In this document: positions 4,657 to 25,824 of the stretch, piece after piece
How positions within the stretch are numbered: position 1 is the stretch's first letter
Layout: each line of letters starts with the position of its first letter
From: an uncultured Candidatus Melainabacteria bacterium
GTDB lineage: Bacteria; Cyanobacteriota; Vampirovibrionia; Obscuribacterales; Obscuribacteraceae
DNA length: 64,000 nt
Direction: 5' to 3'
NCBI GenBank assembly: GCA_937879965.1
Contig: CALFMP010000054.1
Location: forward strand, 148,909-212,908
Program-made: the position numbers and the translations under genes
Notes under the pieces: model-generated
Told to the model about the DNA's origin: nothing
The model's database searches: none
The model's input: only the letters and a program-made list of their open reading frames with translations

Positions 4657-5805
4657 TTATGAAATCGAGTTGGCAGTTACTTTTGGAGAAGATTTGGAAG
4701 ACTTCTGCTCGCGGCTGTAGTTTCCGATTTCTTCGATGACTGCATCGATTTGATCGTCGGTTAAGCCGGGGTGCATGGGCAGAGAAAGAATTCGGTTGAC
4801 GAGCTTCTCTGTCACTGGAAGCGAACCGGGTTTGTATCCCAGATAGCTGTAGGCTTTCTGCAGATGCGCCGGGTTCGGATAATGAATCAAGGTTTGAATG
4901 CCCTTTTCGAGCAAATAGGCTTGCAGACCATCGCGATCATCGGTCTGAATTACATAAAGGTGATAGACGTGCTTACGTCCTTCTGCCTCGTACGGTGTTA
5001 CAACAATACCTTCGAGACCTTCGTTGTAGCGCTTCGCAATTTCGCGGCGGCGCTCATTCCATTGCTCAACAAAAGGAAGTTGAGCATCGAGAATAGCGGC
5101 TTGCATTTCATCAAGACGGCTGTTGATGCCGATGATGTCGTGATAGTAGCGCTTAGATTGACCGTAATTACGCAGCTTCACGAGCTTGTCGAAGTTTTCG
5201 CTGGAGTTGGTCGATACGGCGCCGCCGTCTCCAAATGCGCCCAGGTTCTTGCTTGGATAAAAACTAAAGGCACCGTAGTCACCCAAAGTTCCAGCAATCG
5301 CACCTTTATAGGTAGCGAGTGTCGATTGCGCACAATCTTCTAAGAGCATGATCTTATGTTTCGCAGCAATCTTCAACAAAGGCTCCAGGTCCACCATTTG
5401 ACCGTAGAGGTGCACAGGCACAAGAGCTTTGGTCTTTTCGGTAATCTTCGCTTCAACCAAATTTACGTCCATGACGTATGTCTTGGGGTCGATGTCTACA
5501 AATACGGGTGTTGCACCGGTCATCGAAATAGCCGAGATGGTGGGCACTGCAGTGTGCGCCACAACAATTACTTCATCGCCCGTCGTCACTCCGGCAGCCG
5601 CCAGAGCGAGATAGATAGCCTCTGTGCCGGAAGCGCAACCAGCAACGTAGCCGGAGCCCAGTGATTTCGCGAACGCAGCTTCGAATTTTTCGAGTTCGCT
5701 ACCCAAAATATAGTGACCACTCTCAAGAACGCGATGGACCGCCTGGTCGATCTGGCTCTTATAAGTTTGGTAGTGCACCTTCATGTCGCCGAATGGGACT
5801 TTCAC
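4657..5805 (-). CDS. DegT/DnrJ/EryC1/StrS family sugar aminotransferase
   Basis: GTG start preceded by AAGGAG. N-terminus VPFGDMKVHYQ...ILGSELEKFEAAFA and PLP-lysine context FSFYPSKNLGAFGDGG are typical of the family. Confidence 0.9.
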   Translation of the reverse strand: MKVPFGDMKVHYQTYKSQIDQAVHRVLESGHYILGSELEKFEAAFAKSLGSGYVAGCASGTEAIYLALAAAGVTTGDEVIVVAHTAVPTISAISMTGATPVFVDIDPKTYVMDVNLVEAKITEKTKALVPVHLYGQMVDLEPLLKIAAKHKIMLLEDCAQSTLATYKGAIAGTLGDYGAFSFYPSKNLGAFGDGGAVSTNSSENFDKLVKLRNYGQSKRYYHDIIGINSRLDEMQAAILDAQLPFVEQWNERRREIAKRYNEGLEGIVVTPYEAEGRKHVYHLYVIQTDDRDGLQAYLLEKGIQTLIHYPNPAHLQKAYSYLGYKPGSLPVTEKLVNRILSLPMHPGLTDDQIDAVIEEIGNYSREQKSSKSSPKVTANSIS

Positions 5806-6066
5806 CGGTTAGCTCCTTTGCTCTGTAGAATCGGGCCCACACATACTAGAAGAAATGGTCAAGAAGCGAATTAAGAGCAACTTAATTGACATCTGACGAG
5901 AAGTGACATGGGCTTGGGATTTCCGCCAATTGTCGCCGGTTTGCGTGGTAAGATCATTGGCTTGGATTTAGCCGGCGGCGTTTTCCGAAACGCGCACAGG
6001 ATCACCGTTTACGCCTGAGTCCAGAATTCCGAAAAGTGAGCGCGAATTTAGAGTTAGACGGAGATC

Positions 6067-7107
6067 ATGATCGAAGTATTCAAAGGTAAGACGGCTCTCA
6101 TAACCGGTGGCATGGGCTTCATCGGCTCCAATCTGGCTGCGAAGCTGGCTGAGCTGGGCGCGAAGGTCACCATCCTGGACGCCATGATTCCGGATTACGG
6201 CGGCAACGTATTCAACGTTCAAGAATCCGACAAAATTCGCATCAACTTTTGCGACATAAGAGACCCTTCAGCCGTCGATTGGCTGGTGCGCGGGCAGGAT
6301 TATGTTTTTCACCTGGCCGGTCAGGTCTGCCACCTGATGAGCCTTTCCAATCCATTTCCCGATATTGAAATGAATATCACCGGCACCGCCATCGTTATGG
6401 AGGCGCTGCGCAAACACAATCCGAATGCAATTGTTGTTTACACAGGTACACGTGGTCAGTACGGCTCCGTCGTTTCCATGCCGGTAAATGAAGAAGCACC
6501 GACCAATCCCAAAGGGATCTACGAGATTTCCAATCTCACCGCCGAAAAAATCATCAAGGTTTACAACGATGTTCACGGCATCCGTTCGTGCTCATTGCGC
6601 TTGAGCAACATTTACGGACCGCGTTCGCAAATGATGCACTCGCGCTTCGGTGTCGCCAACTGGTTTATCCGTCTGGCAATGGACGACGACACCATTCAAC
6701 TCTTCGGCGACGGCAGCATTCTGCGCGACTTCTGCTACGTCGATGATTGCGTCGATGCAATTTTGCGCGTTGCCACCACACCGGAATGCTATGGCGAGAT
6801 TTTCAACGTCGGCTCCGACATTCCAGTCAGCTTCAGAGAATTGTGCGACGCCATCGTCAAAGTTGCGAAGTCGGGTCGCTGGCAGTTCGCCGAGTTTTCG
6901 CCGGAAAGAAAAGCGCAAGAGCCTGGCGATTTCTATTCGGATATCTCCAAGATCGAACGCTTCACAGGCTGGCGCCCCAACACCGAGTTGGAAGAGGGCA
7001 TCGCGAAGACAATCGAATACTACGCGAAACACCGCGATCACTATTGGACCAAGCCGGAAAAAACTTTGCCCGCAGACAAAGAAACGGTCACTGCGACAAA
7101 GCGTTAG
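6067..7107 (+). CDS. NAD-dependent epimerase/dehydratase (extended SDR, UDP-sugar decarboxylase/epimerase-like)
   Basis: Rossmann motif TGGMGFIGSNL. Extended-SDR layout. The expected YxxxK reads YEISN (Lys to Asn), see findings. Confidence 0.85.
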   Translation: MIEVFKGKTALITGGMGFIGSNLAAKLAELGAKVTILDAMIPDYGGNVFNVQESDKIRINFCDIRDPSAVDWLVRGQDYVFHLAGQVCHLMSLSNPFPDIEMNITGTAIVMEALRKHNPNAIVVYTGTRGQYGSVVSMPVNEEAPTNPKGIYEISNLTAEKIIKVYNDVHGIRSCSLRLSNIYGPRSQMMHSRFGVANWFIRLAMDDDTIQLFGDGSILRDFCYVDDCVDAILRVATTPECYGEIFNVGSDIPVSFRELCDAIVKVAKSGRWQFAEFSPERKAQEPGDFYSDISKIERFTGWRPNTELEEGIAKTIEYYAKHRDHYWTKPEKTLPADKETVTATKR

Positions 7108-7258
7108 ACTCTGCGGTCAAAGGTTATTCAGGCGTTCGTCACCGTCAAGCAAGAGCTTGTTGGAACGACAATCAGTCCTTAATCACGAGCCTGCTTGCGG
7201 GTTAACCCCAGTGCGTTTTTTCACGACTGCGTGAAGAATGAGCGCTGAGGTACTTAGT

Positions 7259-8194
7259 ATGCAGCGAAAGACTCCGAGACGAACCAAATCCGAACGCTCT
7301 CTCGCATACCTGCTCGCATTCTCATTTGCCGCGTGCACCCCTGCAGTGCTGGCTGACCAACGTGATGTTCTGAACGCACAGAAATACGTCAAAGAAGTGG
7401 GAGAGAATCAGGAGGAGTCTATAACGGCGCACTTCGATCTCGCGTGCGCCTACCTCGAAGACGAAAAGTATCAAAAGGCGGACGATGCTTTCAACAAGGC
7501 GGTTGCCATAGAAAAACGAGTAGGGCTTACCACTCATGGCATAGTGACGCTGTACATGGATTGGGCAGAACGTCTCGTTGAGCACTACGAATTTAAGAAG
7601 AATCCCGAGCTGTTGAAACAAGCAACCCAAGCAATCGCAGGTGCCACACTCGCAACAAAAAGAATCCCATTGCACGACTCCGTCTACTACCATCAGCAGA
7701 TGATTGATTTTTTTCGCAAGGTCGGAATGAAGGCAGAAGAGAAGAAGCAGATTCAGATTTTTGACAATAGTTTGTCAGCCGTTGAGCAAGGACCACTCGA
7801 AAGCCACGAAATAACCCAGATTGGATTTGCTCTGAAACAACTTGCGGCGATGCACGCACGCGCGCTCTCGGTGCATGAAATCCACCACGGAACAAAACCC
7901 ACCGAGCAAGTGACAAGCGACAACACGCCAAGCAAGCCAAAAACAATAAAACAGTCGAAGTTTTCGAAAGCAGAATGTTATATGCTCCGAGCAAATCAAG
8001 TTTTTAGCAGGCTTGCGGAAAATTCGCACATAAGGCTACAGGAGCAACGCGAGCTTATATTCTGGTTTCGATACTACGGCAGAAAGTCTCAAGAAGAATT
8101 TCAAACGAGACAGCTAGCAAAACTTGTCCATTCAAACGATCTGAAAATCATGTTTCCGCCGGTGGAGCGTTGTTTAGGGTGCGGGCGAGGGTAG
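7259..8194 (+). CDS. Secreted protein, paralog 1 of a family ending in CxxCGRG; candidate DUF692 substrate
   Basis: ATG at 7259 with GAGG 9 nt upstream (the longer ORF starts at 7238). Signal/lipobox-like N-terminus (LLAFSFAACTPAVLA). The last ~75 aa are collinear with the two downstream paralogs. Ends ...FPPVERCLGCGRG-stop. Confidence 0.7.
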   Translation: MQRKTPRRTKSERSLAYLLAFSFAACTPAVLADQRDVLNAQKYVKEVGENQEESITAHFDLACAYLEDEKYQKADDAFNKAVAIEKRVGLTTHGIVTLYMDWAERLVEHYEFKKNPELLKQATQAIAGATLATKRIPLHDSVYYHQQMIDFFRKVGMKAEEKKQIQIFDNSLSAVEQGPLESHEITQIGFALKQLAAMHARALSVHEIHHGTKPTEQVTSDNTPSKPKTIKQSKFSKAECYMLRANQVFSRLAENSHIRLQEQRELIFWFRYYGRKSQEEFQTRQLAKLVHSNDLKIMFPPVERCLGCGRG

Positions 8195-8229
8195 AATTGA
8201 AGACAGGCATTTCAAAGGGCGGGGAGAGA

Positions 8230-8829
8230 ATGAACAACAAATCTTCTAAGGTTATCAATTCATTGGTTGCACTGGGAGTGGTAGTCAGTGCGTTGCCTGC
8301 CTACGCCGATGAAACACCACTCGCGCGCGCATTGAAGCACTACGAAGAAATCAGTAAGAAGCAGGGAGCAAGCATACAGGCATCGCAGCTTGCTAAACTG
8401 GAGAAAGAATTGAAAGCGCTTGAAGCAGATGAAAAGCTGGATCGCAACGGCATTTTGTCCACCGCGATGATATTTCAAAGGCTCGCACAAAAGCATGCTC
8501 CCTCGCTTAACTTCCGCGGCTCCCGAATGGTGCCGCAGGTCCAGGTTGTAGCCGATGATGCACCTGCTAAGGACGGAAATATTAAGCAAAAGAACTACAA
8601 TGCGGCTGAAGGCTATAGGCTGCGTGCAATGGCTCTGTACAACAGACTTCCGGAAACAGATCCGACACGAATCAACGAACAGCGAAATTTAGCGTCCTGG
8701 TACTACCACTATGGTCAAAAGCAGCAGGAAGAACTTCAAACTCAGCAGTTGAGCAAGTTGCTGCATACAACCGACCGAGATAAACTGTTTCCGCCGCCAC
8801 CGCCTTGCCCTGCGTGTGGAATGGGTTAG
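8230..8829 (+). CDS. Secreted protein, paralog 2 of the family, ending in CPACGMG; candidate DUF692 substrate
   Basis: ATG at 8230 preceded by GGGGAGAG. Sec signal with AYA-DE cleavage context. Conserved C-terminal module ...LFPPPPPCPACGMG-stop. Confidence 0.75.
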   Translation: MNNKSSKVINSLVALGVVVSALPAYADETPLARALKHYEEISKKQGASIQASQLAKLEKELKALEADEKLDRNGILSTAMIFQRLAQKHAPSLNFRGSRMVPQVQVVADDAPAKDGNIKQKNYNAAEGYRLRAMALYNRLPETDPTRINEQRNLASWYYHYGQKQQEELQTQQLSKLLHTTDRDKLFPPPPPCPACGMG

Positions 8830-8871
8830 GTAGTGCAAACAGCAACTGTGAAAACTCGGAATAAGGAAGTG

Positions 8872-9882
8872 ATGCGAAAGAAGACCATCCTGGCAATCGC
8901 ATTCGCGAGTAGCGTACTTTGCCCTACACTCCCGACTCTAGCAGAGAAGGCTCTTGATTCGTCGGATCCCGAGATACAGGAAATACCGAATGAAAAGAAT
9001 ACAGATCCAAGATCACGGGCAGAATCACTGCTTAGATACGCGAGCAAGCACCTGCCAGAAAGTGTGCAATACGATGTCGACCTTCAACTATTGCGCATGC
9101 ATTACGTTGAAACGCGAAAGGCACGGTTTAAGAAATACCGTCGGTGGGATTTACTAGACCTCGGCAACCGGGAAATCCTTTCAGAAATCGATGCAAGAAA
9201 AAAATTTGCCTATAAAGATCGGGACCTTCAGAAGTTCCAAAACGAAGAAAAGCGAACCCTGGCAAACCAGGCAACTCAGCAGGCATTGAATCAAATAGCA
9301 AATTGCAATGACAGGTACGTTCGACTTTACCTCTACTTAGTCGCCCTGCAATTATTTCATCAAACAGACAATATAGATGGAATGCAGCAATGCAATGGTT
9401 TTCTTGAAAAAGAGTTCCAGAGATGCGAGAAGAATGCACATGTTGACGAGATTGAGATTGACGAATCAATCTCGGTCCTAAATCAGATGGCAAACAATTT
9501 GATTCATACATATATCTCGACCATTGACCTAAAGACTTATCCGCTTTTGACTTCTACTCTAAAGAGGTCACCTCCGCCGACAATAGAACCGTTTACTGAA
9601 GAGGATTTCGTAGAAAGCGAGAAGCTAAGACTTAGAGCACTTGCTATCGCAGACCGACTACCACCCGAACATCACCTGAGAAGACGCGCGCACCGAGATT
9701 TAGTTCTTTGGTATCAACAGTTAGGCAAAAACGAAAAAGCTGAAAATGAAAAATCGATTTTATTCGATTTGGTCGGAATTAGGGACGATAGTATTCTATA
9801 TCCCCAACCAGGAATGTGTGGGCGTCATGTTTGGTGGCAAAAGGTTGGAACAGTAGCGGAGTTTGGTTGTGGAATGGGTTAG
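8872..9882 (+). CDS. Secreted protein, paralog 3 of the family, ending in GCGMG; candidate DUF692 substrate
   Basis: ATG at 8872 preceded by AAGGAAG (a GTG alternative lies at 8833). Signal peptide MRKKTILAIAFASSVLCPTLPTLA. Same C-terminal module, but 16 aa lie between the two Cys (C-GRHVWWQKVGTVAEFG-C-GMG-stop). Confidence 0.7.
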   Translation: MRKKTILAIAFASSVLCPTLPTLAEKALDSSDPEIQEIPNEKNTDPRSRAESLLRYASKHLPESVQYDVDLQLLRMHYVETRKARFKKYRRWDLLDLGNREILSEIDARKKFAYKDRDLQKFQNEEKRTLANQATQQALNQIANCNDRYVRLYLYLVALQLFHQTDNIDGMQQCNGFLEKEFQRCEKNAHVDEIEIDESISVLNQMANNLIHTYISTIDLKTYPLLTSTLKRSPPPTIEPFTEEDFVESEKLRLRALAIADRLPPEHHLRRRAHRDLVLWYQQLGKNEKAENEKSILFDLVGIRDDSILYPQPGMCGRHVWWQKVGTVAEFGCGMG

Positions 9883-9980
9883 TTTTAGCGAATGAGAATT
9901 GTGATGGAAGGCGGCAGTTATGAAATCCAAGCAAGAAAGAGCTTTAGTAGAGTGCGAGCGAAGAGAGATGGATAAGTTTC

Positions 9981-10859
9981 ATGCCTAGTAAACCGAAACT
10001 TGGACTATCGCTGATGCCGACGGAAGATTTCGAGCAGGCGACTGTTCCGCTGTTTCAAAACAATCAAGTTCAGGCAATTGAGTGGAGTTTTGACTTCTCC
10101 TGGAATGGTGCGGTCGTCAGCGAATGGTGCGACGGTATTCTTCACGAGTTTAGTAATCGAGGCGCGTTGACCGGACACGGCGTCAATCTTTCTCCCCTAT
10201 CAGCGCGGTTTTCAAAGAGGCAAGAAGAGTGGCTTGCGAATGCGAAGGAAGAGTTTAAAAATCGAAAGTACGTGCACGCGACTGAGCATTTTGGTTTTTC
10301 TGAAGCAGGTCCGATTGCGCAAGGTGCACCATTGGGAGTGCCAATGAATGCTGAGTCTTTGCGCAAAGGCAAAGATATGATGAAGCGTTATGCGGACGCG
10401 ACGCAATGCCCAGTAGGACTGGAGAATCTCGCTTTTGCATTCGGTCTTGAAGATGTGAAACGTCAGGGCGATTTCATCGATCAATTGATTTCCTCGGTCG
10501 ATGGTTTCCTCCTGTTGGATGTGCACAATATTTATTGTCAGCTTGCGAATTTTGGTGTTTCTGAGTTGGAATTGCTGAATTCATATCCGCTCTCAAAAGT
10601 TCGCGAGATACATTTATCCGGTGGAACATGGAGTGGGTCTATCTCTGGAAAGAGAGCTGCTGTACGGCGTGACACGCATGACGATGCTATTCCTCAAGAA
10701 GTTTTCAACCTAGCGACATTGGCATTGAAGCTTTGCCCAAACGTCGAGTTTGTGATCATGGAAAGACTCGGATACACCATGATGGATCTAGATTCTCAGC
10801 AAGAATTCCGCGAAGACTTCGAGACAATGGAAGAGATTCTGGAGTTTTGCTATGCCTGA
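9981..10859 (+). CDS. DUF692 family (MbnB/TglH/BufB-like) multinuclear non-heme iron oxidase, TIM-barrel
   Basis: 292 aa. Ordered motifs match MbnB by eye: GHGVNLS, ATEHFGFS, GLENLAF, LLLDVHNIY, IHLSGG, RRDTHDD, VIMER. These align with MbnB AFHIMLS, SDHILYF, YLENYPS, LFDASNAI, FHVAGYG, KADTHDR, ITYERD. Confidence 0.85.
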   Translation: MPSKPKLGLSLMPTEDFEQATVPLFQNNQVQAIEWSFDFSWNGAVVSEWCDGILHEFSNRGALTGHGVNLSPLSARFSKRQEEWLANAKEEFKNRKYVHATEHFGFSEAGPIAQGAPLGVPMNAESLRKGKDMMKRYADATQCPVGLENLAFAFGLEDVKRQGDFIDQLISSVDGFLLLDVHNIYCQLANFGVSELELLNSYPLSKVREIHLSGGTWSGSISGKRAAVRRDTHDDAIPQEVFNLATLALKLCPNVEFVIMERLGYTMMDLDSQQEFREDFETMEEILEFCYA

Positions 10860-11073
10860 GGAAGAAGAGGAAACACTTCAAGACTTCCAAGACGCTCTCA
10901 TAGAGCTGCTTTCGAGTGGACAGCCGGAGCTGGTGATTTTTGAAACTTTGAAAACAGATCCGAGATTCGAAAACTATCGCGACTACATTGCTGAATTCGA
11001 TCCTGACATGGTGGCAGTCGCTTGCGAGCTAATGGGCAAGTGGGCAAAATGGAAAGAACCTGAAGAAATATAG
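10852..11073 (+). CDS. Small acidic protein translationally coupled to the DUF692 gene; candidate minimal partner/recognition subunit
   Basis: The ATG overlaps the DUF692 stop (ATGCCTGA, 8-nt overlap). 73 aa, helical-looking, begins EEEEETLQDFQDALIELL, reminiscent of the N-terminus of DUF2063-type partners. No confident family call. Confidence 0.55.
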   Translation: MPEEEEETLQDFQDALIELLSSGQPELVIFETLKTDPRFENYRDYIAEFDPDMVAVACELMGKWAKWKEPEEI

Positions 11074-11094
11074 ACCGTTGAACAACACTTCTGA

Positions 11095-11128
11095 GCCGGC
11101 GAGCCGCCGGCGCTCCCAGGCTTCGCAC
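11095..11128. repeat. REP-like hairpin (GCCGGCGAGCCGCCGGC subtype)
   Basis: GCCGGCG-AGC-CGCCGGC hairpin followed by GCTCCCAGGC. The same unit recurs at 26257, 57125 and 57205. Lies between convergent genes. Confidence 0.7.
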
Positions 11129-11130
11129 AC

Positions 11131-11457
11131 TTACGATTTGTCCTGAAGTCCGTCGCAAACTTGGCGCATCTCTTCCTCTGAAAGGCAGGCGTGAGACGAG
11201 AGCCTGTTAGAGAGCCAACCAGTCAGTTCTTTGCGTTCATCATCTCGGACAAACAGTTCCGTCATCCGTCCGCGAAACCAACCCACTAGTTCGAACACTT
11301 CTTTGAACGTCACTTTCGTTTCATCATGACGCGTTTCGCAGTGACACGACATCAGCCACGAGGTGAACTCCTTCACCTCAGACGCACTCAAATTGCTTTC
11401 CTTAACTCGGTCTTGCAACCAGCGCTCGAACTCTTGTGCCTCATCTTTGTCGGGCAT
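11131..11457 (-). CDS. Hypothetical protein with three internal E(F/L)xxWL repeats
   Basis: 108 aa. Starts 3 nt after the upstream SUFU-like gene. Repeated EFERWLQDRV / EFTSWLMS / ELTGWLSNRL. Confidence 0.55.
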   Translation of the reverse strand: MPDKDEAQEFERWLQDRVKESNLSASEVKEFTSWLMSCHCETRHDETKVTFKEVFELVGWFRGRMTELFVRDDERKELTGWLSNRLSSHACLSEEEMRQVCDGLQDKS

Positions 11458-11460
11458 GGT

Positions 11461-12549
11461 CTAGCTCTCGAAGGACTCACTACCGTACGCGACGTTTTCC
11501 CTAAAGTTATCCGCGAAGGATTTGGTTTTCAGCAAGGCAAGTCCAATTCCCTCTTGCTCCATCACTGTGCCACGGTATGGATCTGTGACTTGGTCGTGTC
11601 CCATTTGGCGTAAGACTTGCTGTATGCACCACGTTCCATATTCTTCTATTGACTCTGCAAACTGCCTTTCGTCAGGAGTGATGCCGATAGCGATGAAGAG
11701 GCCAAAGCCGCCGGACGGCAGATAGTACCAGCAATCTGGAGCATCATCTGGATACCAAATAAAGATGTTGCTCAACTTGGAATTGGAGCCGGGAATGATG
11801 GGGCCGTTCAAATCAATTCGCACGCCAGGTGAAAGTGTCCCTGCATGATTGAGAATGTAGAACGCCAAAGTGCGCAGTATTTGCGGCGCCCAGGGCATAT
11901 CTTCCTTCGCCTTGATCATGATTTCGCAACCGAAGCCGGTCACTTCTGCAGGAGCATCCTGCAACCATGGACTGCTCAATCCGGCAGTAACATAAGTCCA
12001 ATAGGGGCGCGTCGGATCTGGCGCGTAAACGAGAATATTGAGGTGTTGTTCGTCGAGGTTCGGATTGCCCGGGTCGCCGGTCTCGCCTCTCTCTTTTTCT
12101 TCCTCAGGCAGAATTACATCTTCTAATTTGAGCACCGGAGGCGGTGCATATGGTCCGGGAGTAACATGGTGAGGTTCACCGAACAATTCGCGATAAAGCT
12201 CATCACGAGTATTCCAGGACTCAATCAGCAAGTTTCGCTGCCTAACCGCTGCTTCACGCGCTTCTTCAGGCGAAAGTTGCATCCCTTGCAGCATCTTGAA
12301 GACGCGGGAGTCTTCTAGCTCGATGTACTCGTCAGACTCGTATGTTATTTCCCCGCCAGCCGCTACGAGCTTTTGCGCATCGAGCTGCTCGCGATCGCAT
12401 CCAGGCTCAGATTTAGCTTTTGCAGAAGACTTTGGTGGATCAACTTTCTGCTCAGCAGAACTTGCCGCTTCCATTTTTTCTGTTTTTTCTACAGCTTTCT
12501 TCGGTGCTGATTTCTTCGGCTTCTCATTGCCGGATTTGCCCTTGGGCAT
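11461..12549 (-). CDS. Suppressor-of-fused (SUFU)-like domain protein with Lys-rich disordered N-terminus
   Basis: The C-terminal ~230 aa show the bacterial SUFU-like pattern (HLNILVYAPDPTRPYWTYVTAGLS ... PWAPQILRTLAFYILNHAGTLSPGVRIDLNGPI). The ATG shares one base with the lepA stop (TAATG). Confidence 0.6.
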   Translation of the reverse strand: MPKGKSGNEKPKKSAPKKAVEKTEKMEAASSAEQKVDPPKSSAKAKSEPGCDREQLDAQKLVAAGGEITYESDEYIELEDSRVFKMLQGMQLSPEEAREAAVRQRNLLIESWNTRDELYRELFGEPHHVTPGPYAPPPVLKLEDVILPEEEKERGETGDPGNPNLDEQHLNILVYAPDPTRPYWTYVTAGLSSPWLQDAPAEVTGFGCEIMIKAKEDMPWAPQILRTLAFYILNHAGTLSPGVRIDLNGPIIPGSNSKLSNIFIWYPDDAPDCWYYLPSGGFGLFIAIGITPDERQFAESIEEYGTWCIQQVLRQMGHDQVTDPYRGTVMEQEGIGLALLKTKSFADNFRENVAYGSESFES

Positions 12550-14354
12550 TAGTCTTCCTCAAGCTTAAGCACAGCCATAAATGCTTCCTGCGGAATTTCG
12601 ACACGTCCCACGGACTTCATCCGCTTCTTACCTTCTTTCTGTTTCTCCAAGAGTTTCCGTTTACGAGAAATGTCACCGCCATAGCACTTAGACAATACAT
12701 CTTTGCGTTGGGCAGAAACGGTTTCACGCGCAATAATCTTGCCGCCGATTGCGGCTTGAATTGGAACTTCGAACATCTGGCGAGGGATGAGTTTCTTCAG
12801 TTTCTCTGCCAGCAAACGACCATAGCCCGCAGCACGCTCGCGGTGAACAATCGCGGATAGAGCGTCGCAAGGCTCGCCGCCGATCAGGATATCGAGTTTT
12901 ACAAGGTTCGATTCTCTGTACTCATTGAAGTGATAGTCGAGACTTGCATAACCGCGAGAACGCGACTTCAACTGATCGAAGAAATCGGTGATGATTTCCG
13001 CCAGAGGGAGCTCGTAATGCAGCATGGCACGCCGTGGATCAAGGTATTTCATGTCTTGGAAAATACCGCGACGTCCCTGGCAGAGTTCCATAATCTGCCC
13101 GACAAAATCATTCGGAACCATAATTGATGCAGATACGTACGGCTCTTCAATCATCGTACGATAGTTGGGATCAGGCAGGAATGCTGGGTTCTCAATCATC
13201 AGGACAGAGCCGTCAGTCTTCGTTACGCGATAGACAACAGACGGAGCTGTTGTGATCAAACGCAGGTCGTACTCACGCTCGAGACGCTCCTGGATGATTT
13301 CCATGTGTAGCAATCCAAGGAATCCGCAACGGAATCCGAAGCCGAGAGCCTCTGAAGTCTCTGGTTCGTACTGCAGGGAGGAATCGTTGAGAATCAGCTT
13401 TTCGAGAGCTTCGCGGAGATCGGGATATTGCTCGTTGTCGACTGGATACAAGCCTGCGAACACCATCGGCTTCGCAGGACGATAGCCGGGTAGCGGCTCC
13501 GGCGCAGGTCGTTCTTGGTGCGTAATTGTGTCACCAACGAGCGTTGCAACGTCCTTGATGGAAGCGGCAAGATAACCTACTTCGCCGGGACCAAGTTTAT
13601 CGACTTTGAATTGCTGCGGGCGGAGAACGCCTAATTCGGTGACTTCGAAATCGGATTTGTTTTCCATGAAGCGAATCTTGTCGCCCATTTTGATTTCGCC
13701 GTCTTTCACACGGAAGTAAACAATGATGCCGCGATAGCTTTCAAAATAGCTGTCGAAGACTAGCGCGCGAAGTGGCTTGTCGGCAGTATTCTCCGGTGGA
13801 TGAATATAGTTGACGATCGCTTCGAGAGTTTCTTCGATGCCGATATGATTTTTTGCGGAAGCTAAAACTGCGTGGCTTGCATCCAGACCAATCACCTCTT
13901 CTATCTCGGCGCGGATACGCTCCGGGTCGGCACTCGGCAAATCGATCTTATTGATGATTGGAACAATTTCGAGATTGTTCTCGACCGCGAGGTGAACGTT
14001 TGCCAGCGTCTGCGCTTCAACCCCCTGGCTGGCGTCGACCACCAACAGCGCGCCTTCGCATGCAGCGAGACTGCGTGAAACTTCATAACCGAAATCGACG
14101 TGCCCCGGCGTATCGATTAAATTCAAAATGTAATGCTTGCCGTCCTGCGCTGTGTATTCCATCCGCGCCGGCTGCGCCTTGATGGTGATACCGCGCTCGC
14201 GCTCGATATCCATGGTGTCCAGGATCTGCGCTTGCATGTCGCGCTTGGCGATGGTTTTGGTGTATTCCAAAAGGCGATCCGCCAACGTCGACTTACCGTG
14301 GTCGATGTGAGCGATGATTGAGAAATTGCGGATGAGATTCGGGTCGGCTGTCAC
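12549..14354 (-). CDS. lepA: Translation elongation factor 4 (LepA)
   Basis: 601 aa, GTG start. G-domain motifs [21 protein letters not shown]. The characteristic LepA C-terminal domain is present. Confidence 0.97.
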
Positions 14355-14757
14355 TGGCTTCCAAGTACAACTGCGAGGGCGTAAACGCGTGAGCTCTCAT
14401 TAGCGCGGGCTCAGAAAGACCAGAGCGCGCCCATGTGGTCTACACGAACCGTATGATATCAGGGAAAACCCCGCCAGGTGCCCACCTGAAGGTTTTGACA
14501 CTTAATCAGCAATAAAAGAACAAGGAAGGCTTTCCTCGGAATCGGTCGCCTGCTGTCTTTAGCGGACCTGAGATGTTCCGTAACGCAGGCTGGCGCCCGT
14601 CTCAAAGCTCCTTAACGGCGTGTTAAAATTCGATTTTAGGGTGTTCTTGGGCTTGGGCGTCCGCACGGACGATTCGAGCACTATTTCCGCTCTGGCAACC
14701 ATTGGCGACTTTTGCGACAACTTCCGTTCCAGACCTTTCACCCGACAACCTGTTTTT

Positions 14758-16764
14758 ATGCCAAAAAAAGAAACCCGGAGACACATGACGCATCCCTTCC
14801 TCAAAGAGCTCGCGAAAAGACCGCTACTTGCAGATGGAGGCATAGGCACACTGCTCTATGCACGGGGCGCATCCCCGGAAGCAAGCTTTGAGCACCTCAA
14901 CCTGACCAAGCAGGACGAGATTCAAAAGGTCCACATCGACTACATCAATGCGGGTGCTGATGTAATCGAGACGAATTCTTTCTCAGCAAACAAGTACCGC
15001 CTGGCGACCTTCGGTCTTGAGGCGGACACGCACAAAATCAATTTGTGGGCAGCCAAGGTGGCGCGAAACGCGCGCGAAGTTGGCGGGCAGCCGGTGTTTG
15101 TAGCTGGTTCTGTCGGGCCGACCGGGAAACTGATGGCGCCCATCGGCGATGTCACAGCGCAAGATCTCAAAGACGCTTTTACAGAGCAAATGGAAGCGCT
15201 ATTGGCTGGCGGCGTCGATCTTTTCATTATCGAAACCATGTCATCGCTGGAAGAAACGGCAATTGCAGTTCGTGCAGCCAGAGCAGTTTCAAAACTTCCG
15301 GTCGTAGCACAAATGAGTTTCTCCCCGGACGGACACACACTTCTTGGTGTCACACCCGAAGACGTTGTAAAACTCTACGTCGAACTCGGCGACGATGCGC
15401 CTGATGTTATTGGTATCAATTGCGGTGCTGGTCCTGGTCCCGTTTTCGATTCGCTGCTGCGCATGTCGCATGCATTGAAAGAACGCGGTGTAGACCCGTC
15501 CAAACTCAATTATTCGTGTTTACCAAACGCCGGTCAGCCAAGCTTGAGCGGTGGACGATATCAATTTATGTCCGGTCCGGACTACTGCGCATCTTATGTA
15601 GAACCTTACGTGCGTGCGGGTGCGCGATTGATTGGCGGCTGCTGCGGTACGACCCCGCACCACATCAAAGCGATGCGCGCAGAACTTGACGCATACATCG
15701 AATCGCAAAAATCGGCATCAGCTGCAACAGCACAGCAACTGCCGGCGATGAAGCCGGAGGCGCTCATTACTCCGAAAGATAAAGCGCGCCCGGTCGAAAT
15801 TAAAAAAGAAACTCCCAAGGTTGGTCCCGAACTTCCCGCATTGGCCGCGCGACTTGCCAATTCCAAGGCAAATCCGAAGAACGGTGATTTCTATGTAAGT
15901 GTGGAACTTGATCCCCCAAAAGGCGCCATCGCCAGAAAGATTTTGCAAGCTGCAGAAACACTCAGAGACGCTGGCGCAGATGCCATCAATGTTGGTGACA
16001 GCCCGATGGCGCGTGTGCGCATGTCATCGTTGGCGACCTGCCAGTTGATTTCGACAAAGGTCGGAATCGAAACCATCATCCACTTCACCACACGCGACCG
16101 CAACCTGATGGGCATTCAAGCCGATTTGCTTGGCTGCCAGGCTCTGGGCATCCACAACGTCATCGCACTCACCGGCGATCCGCCTGCATTGGGCAATTAC
16201 GTCCATGCCACTGCTGTATACGATGTGGACTCTGTTGGTCTTATCAAAATCATAAGCCAGCTCAATCAAGGCTTGGACATCGCAGGCAACTCGATTGGAA
16301 CACCCACTTCGCTCTCAATCGCTTGCGCGCTGAATCCTACGCACGAAAATCGCGCGCAAGAACTCGACCGCTTCGGCAAGAAAATCGAGGCAGGTGCTCA
16401 CTTTGCGATGACACAACCGCTCTATCAATTGAGCGATCTCACAAACTTCCTCGATGAATTCGGCGAGTGCAAGATTCCAATTCTCGTCGGTATTATGCCG
16501 CTTCATAGCTTCAAACACGCCGAATATCTGCACAACGAAGTGCCCGGTATCACTATTCCCGACAAGGTCCGCAAAGCCATGGAAAAAGCTGGCGATCAAG
16601 GAGCGTCCGTTGGATTGGAACTGGCGGAAGAATTGCTCGAAGAACTGCGCCCGCTCTGCCAGGGAACATACGTCGTCCCCTCTTTCGGCCGCTACGACGA
16701 CATATGCCAATTCGTAAAACGCATCAAAGAAAAATCACAAACAAAAGCCGCCGCTAAGACGTAG
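14758..16764 (+). CDS. Bifunctional homocysteine S-methyltransferase / 5,10-methylenetetrahydrofolate reductase (YitJ-like fusion)
   Basis: ATG at 14758 (the longer ORF from 14620 is unlikely). N-terminal Hcy-binding domain (LLADGGIGT ... GGCCGTTPHHI), a linker, then a MetF-type MTHFR domain (VSVELDPPKG ... HFTTRDRN ... ALTGDPP). Confidence 0.9.
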   Translation: MPKKETRRHMTHPFLKELAKRPLLADGGIGTLLYARGASPEASFEHLNLTKQDEIQKVHIDYINAGADVIETNSFSANKYRLATFGLEADTHKINLWAAKVARNAREVGGQPVFVAGSVGPTGKLMAPIGDVTAQDLKDAFTEQMEALLAGGVDLFIIETMSSLEETAIAVRAARAVSKLPVVAQMSFSPDGHTLLGVTPEDVVKLYVELGDDAPDVIGINCGAGPGPVFDSLLRMSHALKERGVDPSKLNYSCLPNAGQPSLSGGRYQFMSGPDYCASYVEPYVRAGARLIGGCCGTTPHHIKAMRAELDAYIESQKSASAATAQQLPAMKPEALITPKDKARPVEIKKETPKVGPELPALAARLANSKANPKNGDFYVSVELDPPKGAIARKILQAAETLRDAGADAINVGDSPMARVRMSSLATCQLISTKVGIETIIHFTTRDRNLMGIQADLLGCQALGIHNVIALTGDPPALGNYVHATAVYDVDSVGLIKIISQLNQGLDIAGNSIGTPTSLSIACALNPTHENRAQELDRFGKKIEAGAHFAMTQPLYQLSDLTNFLDEFGECKIPILVGIMPLHSFKHAEYLHNEVPGITIPDKVRKAMEKAGDQGASVGLELAEELLEELRPLCQGTYVVPSFGRYDDICQFVKRIKEKSQTKAAAKT

Positions 16765-16826
16765 AAATGACATAAGCCGGGCCCGGGAGCCCAGCTTGTT
16801 GTCAGCGCGGATAAACTCTTGCGGAC

Positions 16827-17096
16827 CTAATCCACGCGAAAAGAGAGTCCAGCTGAACTCACGACCCAATAGTCGCCGTTGGACGTGTGCGCTGTGACGT
16901 GCGTGTGGTGGAAGGAGACGATAGCGCCTGAAGAGTACTTGGCGTACAGCATGTCTCCATTCTCGTCGAGATAGAAAGTACTGCCATCCGGAGTGATGCT
17001 CGGTGCGACTCCGTCTGGTTCGAATGAAGCAAGAGAGCGACTTTGGAAACGCTCTGGAAGAAGTTTTTTCAAGGGAAATCCGAGACAATCGTGCAA
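16827..17096 (-). CDS. Hypothetical small protein
   Basis: 89-aa ORF with a TTG start. Beta-rich, coding-like composition. No family recognised. Confidence 0.35.
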   Translation of the reverse strand: MHDCLGFPLKKLLPERFQSRSLASFEPDGVAPSITPDGSTFYLDENGDMLYAKYSSGAIVSFHHTHVTAHTSNGDYWVVSSAGLSFRVD

Positions 17097-17378: not shown

Positions 17379-18359
17379 CTAACGAACCTTGTCTAATTTG
17401 TACACATCATGCTCGGTTGAAGTATCCGTGCTAATCGCATCTTTGTCGGTTGGATCATTGATTCGGCGCTGAATCTCATCTGCTTTTTCGAAACGATTTG
17501 TCTTCTTCAAGAGGCTGACGTACAGTTCTAACGCATCGATGGTTCTTCTGTGTTGTCTGCCATAAGCTTTGGTGCGGATATTGATCGCACGCTTGAGCAA
17601 TGGCTCTGCAACCGAGTAACGCTCCTGTGCCATGTACACACGCGCCAGATTCTTCAATTCAGTAGAGACGGTGTGATGCTCTTCGCCAAATGTGTTTTCG
17701 CGAATCTGCAGAGCTTCCATGAGCAGCGGCTCCATCTCCTTGTACATTTTCTTACGGCAGTACAAGTCCGCGAGTTTCGTCAACGCATCAGCTACAGAGA
17801 CATTCTGATTGCCAACCATCTGGCGCAACAAAGTAATTTCGGACTGCGCTTCCAAAATCATCGACTCGGTCACTTTTTTCGGCTTGTCAGACTTGCCGCT
17901 CAAATCTGTATGAGACAGCCCCAACTCTTCGTGATCGCTTGTCGCCGATTGGGGTTTGGCAGTCTCGTTGGTAGACTTCATCTTCGCAAAGTACGCATCG
18001 ACTGTCGGGATACCGCCCATCGAAAGCGTTAGCGGAGTGTCTTGAAGAGTGCGGCGCGCGTGCGGCGGAATGGTTCCACCACGACGGGCTGCGGCTGCTT
18101 CCTTCTCTCTTTTCTGTAGACTGATTTCGTATAATTTTTGACCGACGGCGGCAGCACCAGCGCGGTGAGGAGCAGCAGCGACCTCAAGAATACTGAGCGC
18201 GCGTTCGTATATCGATTCTGCCTTGAGCAAATCGCCCTGCTCAAGATATAGCGCCGCTAAACGTTGGAGGGTTATCGCCACCTCTGGGTTGTTCGAGCCC
18301 AACGCTTGTTCTTGAATCGTCAAAAATCTTTCGACATCTTCGATACTATTTACTTTCAT
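17379..18359 (-). CDS. TPR repeat protein (kinesin-light-chain-like TPRs)
   Basis: TPR_10/12-like repeats at both ends (ITLQRLAALYLEQGDLLKAESIYERAL; LKNLARVYMAQERYSVAEPLLKRAINI). Start uncertain: ATG at 18359 preferred, in-frame alternatives at 18419 (ATG) and 18440 (GTG). Confidence 0.7.
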   Translation of the reverse strand: MKVNSIEDVERFLTIQEQALGSNNPEVAITLQRLAALYLEQGDLLKAESIYERALSILEVAAAPHRAGAAAVGQKLYEISLQKREKEAAAARRGGTIPPHARRTLQDTPLTLSMGGIPTVDAYFAKMKSTNETAKPQSATSDHEELGLSHTDLSGKSDKPKKVTESMILEAQSEITLLRQMVGNQNVSVADALTKLADLYCRKKMYKEMEPLLMEALQIRENTFGEEHHTVSTELKNLARVYMAQERYSVAEPLLKRAINIRTKAYGRQHRRTIDALELYVSLLKKTNRFEKADEIQRRINDPTDKDAISTDTSTEHDVYKLDKVR

Positions 18360-18450
18360 GTTGGCACCGGCTTGGAATCCACAATCAAATTTCTTTTGCA
18401 CGGCGCCTGAATTAAACATTGGCGGCGCCCTGAGCACCACGCGCGATGCT

Positions 18451-23223: not shown

Positions 23224-24594
23224 ATGACTGCCAACGAAGAATCCATCAAGGCGCTGCGCGAGGCGCTCAATGTGTCACCCGACAACGCGCCACTTCGTAT
23301 TCACCTGGGTGAATTGCTCAACTCCAGCGCTCGCCACGACGAAGCAGAAAAGGAATTCTCAACGGCGCTCACTCTCTCACCCGGCAACGAGGCAGCAAAG
23401 CTGGGTTTGGCATACAGCTGTTACTACCTGGGCAAATACTCACAGGCTCTGGTTATAGTCGAAGATTTGATCAAGCTGACGAAGCCGCCCGCCAAAGCAT
23501 TTATCATCCACTCGCGTTTGTTGTTCAATGATGGCGAACTGGAGAAAGCTCGGCACGCTTACAGACGCGGAACGGAAATAGACTCGTCCGTTCAAGATGC
23601 AAGCTTGTGTGAGTGGCTTGGTTTGAATGATTCGCCGATAACAACTCCATTGGAGCGTGCGGCCGTTACTTCTGATGGCAAAGTCAGAAACTTTGTCACC
23701 AATGAAGATCCGGACGACCACTCAACTTTCTTAGATATAGAAAGGTCAGATATCAGCTTTGAAAACGTCGGGGGCATGGAAGACGTCAAAGAACAAGTGC
23801 GGATGAAGATAATCTATCCGCTCGAGAACCAGGAAATGTTCAAACAGTACGGAAAGAAGATCGGTGGCGGTATTTTGATGTACGGACCACCTGGGTGTGG
23901 AAAAACATTCTTGGCACGTGCCACCGCCGGTGAAATCAAAGCTAATTTCATGAGCGTCGGAATAAATGACGTTCTCGATATGTTTATCGGAGAAAGCGAA
24001 AGGCATCTTCACGAAATTTTCGAGAGTGCTAGACGCAACACTCCCTGCGTTGTCTTCTTCGATGAGGTCGATGCACTTGCAGCAAGCCGCAGTGACATGC
24101 GCAAGAGCGGAACTCGCCAGACCATCAACCAGTTTCTACAAGAACTGGATGGCGTTGACAATTCAAACGAGGGGGTGCTAATTCTGGCGGCAACTAATGC
24201 ACCATGGCACTTGGACAGCGCGTTTCGACGTCCAGGCAGATTCGACAGAATCATCTTCGTGCCACCACCCGATCAAAAAGCCCGCGCCGATATTCTGCGT
24301 TTAACCCTAAAGGGAAAACCAGTAGACAACATCGAATACGAACTTCTGTCAAAGAAAACAGAAAAATTTTCCGGTGCGGATATTTTCGCCGTAGTCGATC
24401 ACGCAGTTGAAGCTAAACTTTCACAGGCAATGAAAGAAGGTGTGCCCAAGCCAATTACCACAAAGGATTTGGAAAACGCTATTAAAAATGTAAAACCATC
24501 CACGGCAGAATGGTTTGCCACTGCACGCAACTACGCGCTTTATTCCAATCAAGGCGGTGCCTACGATGACATTGTCAAATACATGAAACTCTAG
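23224..24594 (+). CDS. TPR-domain AAA+ ATPase (CDC48/FtsH-type AAA module)
   Basis: N-terminal TPRs, then Walker A GPPGCGKT, Walker B VVFFDEVD, and a second region of homology (ATNAPWHLDSAFRRPGRFDR). Confidence 0.85.
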   Translation: MTANEESIKALREALNVSPDNAPLRIHLGELLNSSARHDEAEKEFSTALTLSPGNEAAKLGLAYSCYYLGKYSQALVIVEDLIKLTKPPAKAFIIHSRLLFNDGELEKARHAYRRGTEIDSSVQDASLCEWLGLNDSPITTPLERAAVTSDGKVRNFVTNEDPDDHSTFLDIERSDISFENVGGMEDVKEQVRMKIIYPLENQEMFKQYGKKIGGGILMYGPPGCGKTFLARATAGEIKANFMSVGINDVLDMFIGESERHLHEIFESARRNTPCVVFFDEVDALAASRSDMRKSGTRQTINQFLQELDGVDNSNEGVLILAATNAPWHLDSAFRRPGRFDRIIFVPPPDQKARADILRLTLKGKPVDNIEYELLSKKTEKFSGADIFAVVDHAVEAKLSQAMKEGVPKPITTKDLENAIKNVKPSTAEWFATARNYALYSNQGGAYDDIVKYMKL

Positions 24595-24606
24595 AGTTAC
24601 CGCTGC

Positions 24607-25824
24607 GTGACTGACCATATTGAACGAGGATCCATTCTCTACGATTCACGCCGTTTCAAAATGGCGGAGGACGAGTTTCGACTGGCGATTGCTGAGAATC
24701 CCACCGACTCGTACGCGCACGGAATGCTTGCCTTAGCGCTTGCGGCGCTAAGACGCTTTGATGAGGCGATCAAAGAAGCAAAAGAGTGCATAAATCTGGA
24801 ACCAGACAACTCCTGGAACCATTACGCAATCTCGTTTGTTTATTATCACTGGGGGCGACAGAAGGAAGCGCTCAACGCAATCGAAGAAGCGCTCAGGTTG
24901 AATCCACACCATGCTACATATTTCGGCATGGCCGCGGAGATTCACTTGATGCGAGACGAATGGCAAAAAGCTCTAGTCATGGCTGAGTTAGGTCTCGAAG
25001 CTTCTGCGCAAAACGTAGACTGCTTGAACTGCCGGGCGATCGCTTTGTCAAAACTCGGCAAACATAAAGAGGCGGAAGTCTCTGTCGATCAGGCCTTAGC
25101 ACACGATCCGGAAAACGACATATCGCATGCAAATAAAGCTTCGATTTTGTTTCGACAGGGAAAACCGACGGAATCTGCCGAACATTATCGCGAAGCTTTG
25201 CGCTTGAACCCGAACTCGAGGTGGGCGCGTGAAGGAATTCTCGAAGCACTGAAGGCGCGCAATCCCATTTATTACCCGTTTGCCTACATCACTGCAAAAA
25301 TCTCAGACATGGACAGACGCGCATCCCTTGCGTTTGCTCTCATTTTGATATTTGTCCCGCCGTTGCGCTCGCTGACGTTCTTCTTATTGATTTTGGCCTT
25401 GGCTGCAAGAAAGTTTTTCAATCTTCTTTTGTTGCTGGATCCCTTCGGGAAACGCATTCTTACTGAAGATGAACGCGCATCCACAGCCTGTTTCGGAGTG
25501 TGGCTGGCAGTTCTAGTTTCTTCAATAATCGTCTTTCTTCTTTTCAAACCGATCGCGATCGTTGCACCTCTAGCGATCGTGTTTCAAGTTCTATTGCTCG
25601 TACCGTTGATGCGAATTTTCGATGTAACTCCAGGTATTCGCCGCGACATCCTCACAGCTATCACCGCAGTTACAGCAATTCTTGGCATTTGGAGCATTGT
25701 CTCAAGTGGTCTGGGCGGACGTGATTTCGATCACGTCACAGAAAGCGAGAAAATGATGTGCGGCGTATTTGTTTTGGTATGCCTGCTATCGATCTTTTAC
25801 CCCAACGGAAAGACAGAAGAGTAG
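24607..25824 (+). CDS. TPR repeat protein with a C-terminal multi-pass membrane domain
   Basis: GTG start 13 nt after the AAA gene stop. About 6 TPRs, followed by 4-5 hydrophobic helices (LAFALILIFVPP..., FFLLILALAA..., VWLAVLVSSIIVFLLF...). Confidence 0.7.
   Translation: MTDHIERGSILYDSRRFKMAEDEFRLAIAENPTDSYAHGMLALALAALRRFDEAIKEAKECINLEPDNSWNHYAISFVYYHWGRQKEALNAIEEALRLNPHHATYFGMAAEIHLMRDEWQKALVMAELGLEASAQNVDCLNCRAIALSKLGKHKEAEVSVDQALAHDPENDISHANKASILFRQGKPTESAEHYREALRLNPNSRWAREGILEALKARNPIYYPFAYITAKISDMDRRASLAFALILIFVPPLRSLTFFLLILALAARKFFNLLLLLDPFGKRILTEDERASTACFGVWLAVLVSSIIVFLLFKPIAIVAPLAIVFQVLLLVPLMRIFDVTPGIRRDILTAITAVTAILGIWSIVSSGLGGRDFDHVTESEKMMCGVFVLVCLLSIFYPNGKTEE

Follow-up and report, generated by a model that had tools for sequence, protein, structure and literature searches.

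The five-gene locus g1–g5 within the analyzed stretch of Candidatus Melainabacteria DNA (64 kb of contig CALFMP010000054.1, hereafter the window, to which all positions refer unless another locus is named) has its closest described relative in the mel cluster, an architecture built around an enzyme of the MNIO (multinuclear non-haem iron, DUF692) family and reported in Melainabacteria ("Cyanobacteria") in a preprint (PMC12636315; bioRxiv, November 2025) and in a journal paper (PMC13056109; PNAS, March 2026). The mel precursors are tetratricopeptide repeat (TPR) proteins of 30–40 kDa with signal peptides of the signal peptidase I (SPI) type and CPACGMG ends, while MelHc, a separately encoded ChrH helical domain of about 7.8 kDa, is pulled down by the enzyme MelH and needed for activity (PMC12636315, PMC13056109). 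MelA1, a secreted TPR protein of 34 kDa, loses 4 Da at CPACGMG only upon co-expression with both MelH and MelHc, and the product of DybA, which keeps one thiol free and lacks a UV chromophore, was determined by NMR as a thioaminal macrocycle combined with a hydantoin (PMC12636315, PMC13056109). The seven-residue tag suffices when placed on GFP, and the variants CPPCGMG and CPAACGMG are also accepted (PMC13056109, PMC12636315, PMC10214503).

Two further characterized pairs, ChrH/ChrA of Chryseobacterium (chryseobasin) and DybH/DybA of Dyadobacter, resemble the locus in the MNIO subfamily of the enzyme (49–50% identity to g4), in the CPACGMG tail, in the signal peptides of the precursors and in the recognition of the tail only, but their helical C-terminal domain is fused to the enzyme (364–365 aa) and their precursors are peptides of 60–80 aa, neither of which is the case here. 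ChrA is additionally S-methylated (+10 Da) and its cluster includes the DUF1772 membrane protein ChrI, whereas no DUF1772 or membrane protein is present in the unit, and DybA is a lipoprotein processed by signal peptidase II (SPII), unlike the predicted g1–g3 products. The more remote systems MbnB/MbnC (methanobactin), BufB/BufC (bufferins) and HvfB/HvfC (oxazolins) have in common with the locus the MNIO TIM-barrel fold, the iron ligands and a Cys-directed oxidation of an adjacent ribosomal substrate, and the bufferin precursors are Sec-exported, as predicted for g1–g3. However, these systems need a DUF2063/MbnC-type partner that is absent here, g4 belongs to another subfamily and scores only 13–80 bits against their enzyme models, far under the cut-offs, and their products are aromatic heterocycles, which those of ChrH-type enzymes are not. 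The DAG-RiPPs, hybrids of lipoproteins and RiPPs (peptides that the ribosome makes and that are modified after translation) with a conserved SPII lipobox Cys at the cleavage site of the signal peptide (PMC13056109), differ in this residue from g1–g3, in which it is not conserved.

We consider it highly probable that the locus is a mel-type, ChrH-subfamily MNIO protein-modification cluster on a Candidatus Melainabacteria/Obscuribacterales chromosome; this confidence derives from orthology to an experimentally characterized system and not from data for this locus. The original prediction, made from the letters alone, had named g4 a DUF692/MbnB-type iron enzyme, and g4 indeed matched Pfam PF05114 (MbnB_TglH_ChrH) at 4e-27. 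Within NCBIfam it scored 332 bits (E 3e-99) against NF050165 MNIO_ChrH, with an alignment covering positions 1–283 of the 363 of the profile, followed by BufB (80 bits, 2e-22), HvfB (65 bits, 1e-17), ApyH (32 bits) and MbnB (13 bits, 0.06). The series of H, E, D, N, H, D, H and E motifs on which that prediction had relied was found on columns invariant in the alignments with ChrH and Obscuribacterales homologs (H66, H103, E148, D180, H182, N183, H211, D231, H233 and E261), and the LEN, LDxHN, HLxGG and DxHD segments also align to TglH (PDB 8HCI). A PDB sequence search with g4 returned only TglH and 3BWW, with no ChrH-type structure. The closest homologs are about 90 proteins of approximately 293 aa from Obscuribacterales/Melainabacteria metagenome-assembled genomes (MAGs), showing 60–90% identity.

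The genome scan recovered the studied mel contig itself (JADYYD010000159.1, isolate SJ512, which is L013 in our numbering, where L numbers denote loci of other genomes and P numbers protein entries). The gene logic is common to both loci, i.e., precursors of roughly 20–37 kDa, predicted to be secreted and TPR-like, ending in CPACGMG, an MNIO enzyme of 292–293 aa and an Hc protein of 68–73 aa whose gene overlaps the stop codon of the enzyme gene; the neighborhoods match in part (DegT, epimerase, SUFU-domain gene and LepA flanks), and the mel cluster also holds a second precursor of the long-loop type described below. Pairwise identities are 76% between g4 and MelH, about 66% between g5 and MelHc (with the same stop/start overlap), 29% between g1 and MelA1 (over 311 aa, E 7e-41), 43% between g2 and MelA1 (over 183 aa, E 1e-42) and 31% between g3 and the second mel precursor (L013 5395–6366, E 2e-48). 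The two loci differ in that one mel precursor is encoded upstream and one downstream of the enzyme, whereas here all three lie upstream in the order CxGCGRG, CPACGMG, long-loop; MelA1 has about 306 aa as compared with 199 aa for g2, and the mel experiments cover MelA1 only, not the CLGCGRG or long-loop tails. Accession HIA55772.1, which stands in the text obtained by optical character recognition from the family table of the preprint's supporting information (SI), bears the substitutions of the L088 enzyme (97% identical to g4), and a 97%-identical relative of g4 thus appears to be listed already in the family table of the mel paper. The description of the system as undescribed in the original prediction is overtaken by the published mel cluster with these MelH and MelHc identities.

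The small protein g5 had been taken for a miniature MbnC/DUF2063-type partner. A search of g5 alone against the Pfam and NCBIfam models, which the same prediction had proposed as a check, gave no match even at E ≤ 10, and the further comparisons identify g5 as the split-off C-terminal helical domain of a ChrH-type enzyme and not as a reduced form of MbnC, DUF2063 or TglI. When g4 and g5 were concatenated, the NF050165 alignment extended to positions 1–361 of 363, and in a multiple alignment g5 was placed along the C-terminal ~65 residues of the fused ChrH proteins. It also aligned with five naturally fused Obscuribacterales homologs of 377–429 aa, with shared invariant L, Q, L, F, D, M, A and W residues. 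The tblastn searches with g5 matched an ORF directly 3′ of the MNIO gene in every Obscuribacterales locus and, at E 7e-6, the C-terminal end of the fused MNIO ORFs in L034 and L060, while a profile of 15 Hc sequences matched the profile of the Chryseobacterium C-terminal domains in hhalign (E 9e-5, probability 60%). The AlphaFold2 (AF2) model of g5 comprises four helices with a mean predicted local distance difference test score (pLDDT) of 75. Homologs of g5 form 81 clusters, all annotated as hypothetical and devoid of Pfam domains, and a Candidatus Melainabacteria MAG contains the very same protein as g5, likewise labeled hypothetical.

In some Obscuribacterales (L034, L040, L060 and L082), a second, more distant fused ChrH-like enzyme of 367–392 aa was observed, which pairs with a precursor of about 199–226 aa ending in CLGCGMG and encoded approximately 3 kb upstream. 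Other close g4 homologs are fused via long, variable linkers (entries P0030, P0057, P0066, P0077 and P0078). The genome JAGOSY01 carries a split (L017) and a fused (L082) system together, and as both forms were found, they coexist within Obscuribacterales.

Some observations weigh against the assignment of the locus to the mel type. The scores of g4 (332 bits) and of g4 with g5 (336 bits) are both under the 600-bit ChrH equivalog cut-off of NCBIfam, and g4 is accordingly classified, by its sequence, as a subfamily relative of ChrH and not ChrH proper. In this comparison g5 contributes only about 4 bits to the ChrH model, and against a profile of six Chryseobacterium ChrH C-terminal domains it gave no significant match (probability 3%); the link between g5 and the ChrH domain goes through intermediate sequences and natural fusions. 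Furthermore, g1 has no Pro of the CPxCGxG consensus, and g3 departs from the motif altogether, the experiments having covered no ring expansion other than that by one residue (CPAACGMG). Lastly, MelA1 is known by its mass shift only, and the structure of its product is carried over from DybA (PMC13056109).

The association of the precursors with the enzyme was examined across genomes. In each of the 23 Obscuribacterales loci, between one and six genes ending in CGxG flank the MNIO gene, most of them immediately upstream of it and co-oriented with it, which gives, together with the window, 62 such ORFs (roughly 150–375 aa) in 24 loci. Reciprocally, among nine metagenome loci fetched with the precursor profile, six had the MNIO gene (and the Hc gene where the contig allows) immediately downstream. 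Two of the three remaining contigs end within about 120 bp of the precursor, while in L094 no MNIO gene was found in the ~540 bp downstream of a precursor with a CGAG tail, which is possibly an orphan copy. In the more distant ChrH-like loci of Cyanobacteria, Planctomycetota and Bacteroidota, the precursors have 65–240 aa and end in CPxCGxG. As the flanking genes are kept only in some loci, the precursors, MNIO and Hc constitute the conserved module. The linkage of the CGxG module to DUF692 genes, which the original prediction had put forward as a check, therefore holds in both directions, and it supports the claim that large signal-peptide proteins are the likely g4 substrates by way of a C-terminal Cys motif. 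Clusters of the Obscuribacterales type with long-loop precursors and 62–73% identity to g4 were also seen under foreign taxon labels, i.e., in L024 (DATNPN010000020.1, labeled Planktothrix sp.) and L028 (WGNM01000057.1, labeled Cryomorphaceae), which is probably a matter of mis-binning or mislabeling rather than of horizontal transfer.

By analogy with the characterized systems, g4, a multinuclear non-haem iron TIM-barrel protein, and g5, which supplies the C-terminal helical bundle of that enzyme as a separate protein, would assemble into a cytoplasmic complex, which would use O2 to oxidize the C-terminal Cys-x-x-Cys-Gly-x-Gly of a precursor by four electrons. The second Cys and the backbone amides that follow it would be rearranged into a hydantoin (imidazolidinedione), to which the thiol of the first Cys would be joined as a thioaminal, so that a small macrocycle is closed and the mass changes by −4 Da overall. 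With the tail alone being recognized, the body of the substrate may be a whole folded TPR-like protein, and the modified proteins would then be exported by the Sec pathway and cleaved by signal peptidase I. The most likely recipient of the mel modification is g2, with its CPACGMG tail, and g1 (CLGCGRG) would probably receive it as well, whereas for g3, with Cys residues 16 apart, we infer that it may also be a substrate of g4/g5.

The three precursors are paralogs with 28–34% identity, as had been predicted, with the last ~75 aa conserved best and with both tail Cys residues, G309 and G311 invariant in their alignment. Apart from these three, whose tails are CLGCGRG, CPACGMG and ...FGCGMG, no stop-to-stop ORF in any of the six frames of the window ends in CGxG. 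A CxxCG[M/R]G ending had been ascribed to all three, but CxxC holds for g1 and g2 only, since the upstream Cys of g3 lies 16 residues before CGMG. The tail of g2 weakly matches the NCBIfam ChrA and ChrA-related RiPP models, and the first precursor of the syntenic loci L007–L009 ends in the same C-x-G-CGRG tail as g1. Signal peptides were assessed with a crude heuristic and from the homology with MelA1, and not with SignalP; in each of g1–g3 the heuristic indicated an n-region with positive charge, then a hydrophobic core and a cleavage site resembling AxA, and it indicated no signal peptide in g4 or g5. A lipobox-like FAAC is present in g1 only (residues 23–26, window 7325–7336), with none in g2 or g3, and g1 was thus considered as a lipoprotein (DAG-RiPP, SPII), but this was rejected because the lipobox Cys is not conserved in the g1-class orthologs, which retain an ALA|D-type SPI site.

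The TPR matches of the precursors were weak and sub-threshold, with g1 and g3 having 311 and 336 aa and g2 only 199 aa. Strong, unrelated TPR proteins are encoded at 281–1777, 17379–18440 and 23224–25824, including one fusion with an AAA ATPase. The genome being TPR-rich in general, the weak TPR signal of g1–g3 is not distinctive alone. In the AF2 model of g3, the helical core reached a pLDDT of 80–95 and the tail 36–55, and a Foldseek search with this model against the PDB gave only generic TPR, 14-3-3 and alpha-solenoid matches (E > 0.01, TM < 0.35), so the precursor body, as modeled, would have no specific structural relative there.

One thing that is new here is that the natural precursors of this clade mostly lack the published CPxCGxG tag and have a Cx15-19C tail of the CG..WW...CGMG form instead. 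Among the 62 precursor ORFs near the MNIO genes, 13 have CxxCGxG, 3 have a gap of 3–5 residues between the Cys residues, and 46 have a gap of 15–19 (mode 16) together with CG-x-x-x-WW, which makes the long-loop tails about three quarters of the precursor genes in Obscuribacterales clusters. In 17 of the 24 loci, long-loop genes are the only ones within 6 kb of the MNIO gene, although short-class genes could lie further upstream. A word-indexed search with g3 yielded 10 hits only, and an exhaustive profile search was needed; applied to 1.84 billion cluster representatives, it yielded 236 family members at E ≤ 1e-3, and among 155 family proteins that were examined, the end is CGxG in 143 and the gap is 15–19 in 130. 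The consensus of the gap-16 tails (n = 84) is D-D-x-I-L-Y-P-Q-x-x-x-C(100%)-G(96)-x-x-x-W(96)-W(97)-[variable 10]-C(100)-G(100)-M(88)-G(100). The L-[FY]-P motif is as far from the distal Cys of the long loop as it is from the first Cys of CPACGMG, and the long loop thereby resembles an insertion of about 14 residues between the two reactive Cys residues. In P0135 and P0167 the WW segment is retained and the distal Cys is lost, while the ends are CLGCGMG or CFGCGMG; the presence of CxxCGMG in exactly these proteins suggests a requirement for a partner Cys. The AF2 model of g3 shows no confident conformation of the long loop, and with such a tail it offers no structural argument for a pre-organized Cys pair.

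Intermediate gaps of 3 or 5 residues also occur, namely CPGMCGLG, CNGRCGMG and CGNGRFCGMG (L007 4021–5970; L012 3269–4279), and those with a gap of 3 correspond, in nature, to the ring expansion engineered as CPAACGMG. Long-loop tails are mentioned neither in the main text of the paper, which names only CPxCGxG/CPACGMG, nor in the passages of the preprint SI retrieved by term searches, and the term MelA2 is absent from the main text and the preprint SI text, the drawing of the biosynthetic gene cluster being an image outside the text search. The long-loop tail may, though we put this forward tentatively, be a second natural substrate class of the MelH/MelHc enzymes, and the majority class in Obscuribacterales.

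The chemistry and the substrate range could be read otherwise. The original prediction expected g4 to act like MbnB, BufB or HvfB and to build from the tail Cys an oxazolone-thioamide or thiooxazole, i.e., a copper-binding group on exported proteins. Oxazolone-thioamide formation by MbnB also gives −4 Da, and the sole datum on MelA1 would fit such a product too; the superfamily and the conserved iron ligands are shared, and Sec signal peptides occur on bufferin precursors as well. Nevertheless, g4 is placed in the ChrH clade (3e-99, as compared with 2e-22 for BufB, 1e-17 for HvfB and 0.06 for MbnB), whose products are a macrocycle and a hydantoin, no DUF2063/MbnC partner is encoded at the locus, the identical CPACGMG of DybA yields the macrocycle and hydantoin by NMR with no UV-vis feature, and two invariant Cys residues rather than one fit a cross-link, which together make a heterocycle of the MbnB type very improbable. 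Even less credible is a reading in which the CGxG tail would serve as a sorting or anchoring signal, or as a metal or haem ligand of TPR scaffolds, with another small peptide as the MNIO substrate. Large folded proteins are admittedly unusual as RiPP precursors, and neither a leader nor a recognition element is evident from the domain and fold searches, but modification of the MelA1 tail by MelH and MelHc was demonstrated directly, the two-way linkage persists across changing genomic contexts, and short peptides with the same tail adjoin homologous enzymes in Bacteroidota, Planctomycetota and Cyanobacteria.

More weight is due to the view that only g1 and g2 are substrates, g3 being a structural paralog or decoy whose tail is left unprocessed or forms a plain periplasmic C316–C333 disulfide. 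It agrees with the published CPxCGxG motif, with the expansion by a single residue in the experiments, and with AF2, which brings the Cys pair together in no confident structure. On the other hand, it would leave the enzyme with no neighboring substrate within 6 kb in 17 of the 24 loci, and it has to contend with the hydantoin-forming CGMG conserved at 100/100/88/100% in the long-loop class, the position of the distal Cys at the same LxP distance as the first Cys of CPACGMG, and the loss of the distal Cys in P0135 and P0167, which yet carry CxxCGMG. We regard such a non-processed g3 as unlikely, though worth keeping in mind. A new large-ring or otherwise distinct product on g3 is a possibility to which we would give somewhat less than an even chance, and what is left beside these two outcomes falls to processing in which the distal Cys takes no part.

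A further new point is that the precursors are the most variable part of the locus. The DNA of L088 is 98.7–98.9% identical to the window at 5906–8829 and 9948–17041 (blastn), but the 1.1-kb segment between them, which contains g3, is replaced in L088 (2925–7225) by 4.3 kb with four precursor genes, three of the long-loop type and one ending in CHGRCGMG, 35–38% identical to g3. One breakpoint coincides with the stop codon of g2 and the other is 33 bp upstream of g4; the two segments have no more than 69 bp in common, within the signal-peptide region. In the comparison of L007–L009 with the window (4657–14354), identity is 98–99% for LepA, 96–97% for the epimerase, 89–90% for g4 and 76–80% for g5, and it falls to 55–63% for g2, 26–61% for g3 and 26–30% for g1; the more distant L012, L013 and L026 show lower identity throughout the same block. 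The precursor bodies thus diverge far faster than the neighboring genes, and the cassette exchange between near-identical strains suggests diversifying selection on an extracellular function.

The coordinates of the features are collected in Table 1. An ORF check of the window confirmed the five co-oriented ORFs with the coordinates given in the original prediction, and the 7259 start of g1 is also the choice of the gene callers on other contigs. The spacers g1–g2, g2–g3 and g3–g4 measure 35, 42 and 98 nt, and the predicted overlap of the g5 start with the g4 stop was found to be 8 nt. The same five genes were called independently on eight public contigs encoding an identical g4 protein, and the predicted single unit of five genes is supported. 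A promoter and terminator scan of 6900–11600 gave fewer hits than in shuffled sequences and none meaningfully placed, so the operon structure is based on spacing and co-orientation only.

Table 1. Features of the mel-type locus and of its precursor tails (window coordinates).
Feature	Position	Strand	Remarks
g1, putative precursor, 311 aa	7259..8194	+	ORF; predicted signal peptide and helical, TPR-like body; alternative start 7238
g2, putative precursor, 199 aa	8230..8829	+	ORF; predicted signal peptide AYA|DE (SPI-type); tail LFPPPPPCPACGMG
g3, putative precursor of the long-loop class, 336 aa	8872..9882	+	predicted signal peptide, helical-repeat body, disordered tail
g4, ChrH-subfamily iron enzyme with the MNIO (DUF692) TIM barrel but no ChrH C-terminal domain, MelH ortholog, 292 aa	9981..10859	+	
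g5, MelHc ortholog, 73 aa	10852..11073	+	
g1 tail motif CLGCGRG	8171..8191	+	CxxCGxG form, without the Pro of the published CPxCGxG consensus
g2 tail motif CPACGMG	8806..8826	+	same motif as modified experimentally in ChrA, DybA and MelA1
g3 long-loop tail CGRHVWWQKVGTVAEFGCGMG	9817..9879	+	16 residues between both Cys
strain-variable cassette slot (g3 and flanking spacers)	8830..9947		blastn of the window against L088

The remaining genes of the window are ordinary chromosomal ones, including LepA, MetH, MTHFR and many TPR proteins. Directly downstream of the unit, an ORF of 108 aa (11131–11457, minus strand) has no family match, carries three E-[FL]-x-x-W-L repeats within its sequence and is present in a single relative (L008, 57%). 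It is followed by a gene for a SUFU-domain protein (11461–12549, minus strand; PF05076, 5e-19), which is syntenic with LepA in several relatives. Neither of these two genes accompanies the MNIO module in other genomic contexts.

The locus re-finds, from raw sequence, a published system in which MNIO enzymes macrocyclize a seven-residue tag on whole secreted proteins; the reasoning of the original prediction was sound, yet the system itself is not new biology. The fast divergence of the precursors and the swapping of their cassettes are a rare clue to the biological role of the modified proteins. If the ChrH chemistry applies to g3, a thioaminal-closed ring of about 18 residues and a hydantoin would be formed on a secreted protein, or else the modification would be a different one, and either outcome, if true, would lie far beyond the demonstrated rings of 4–5 residues. 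The fate of the long loop would define the ring-size and substrate range of the enzyme family, which is relevant to tag-based cyclization and labeling of proteins.

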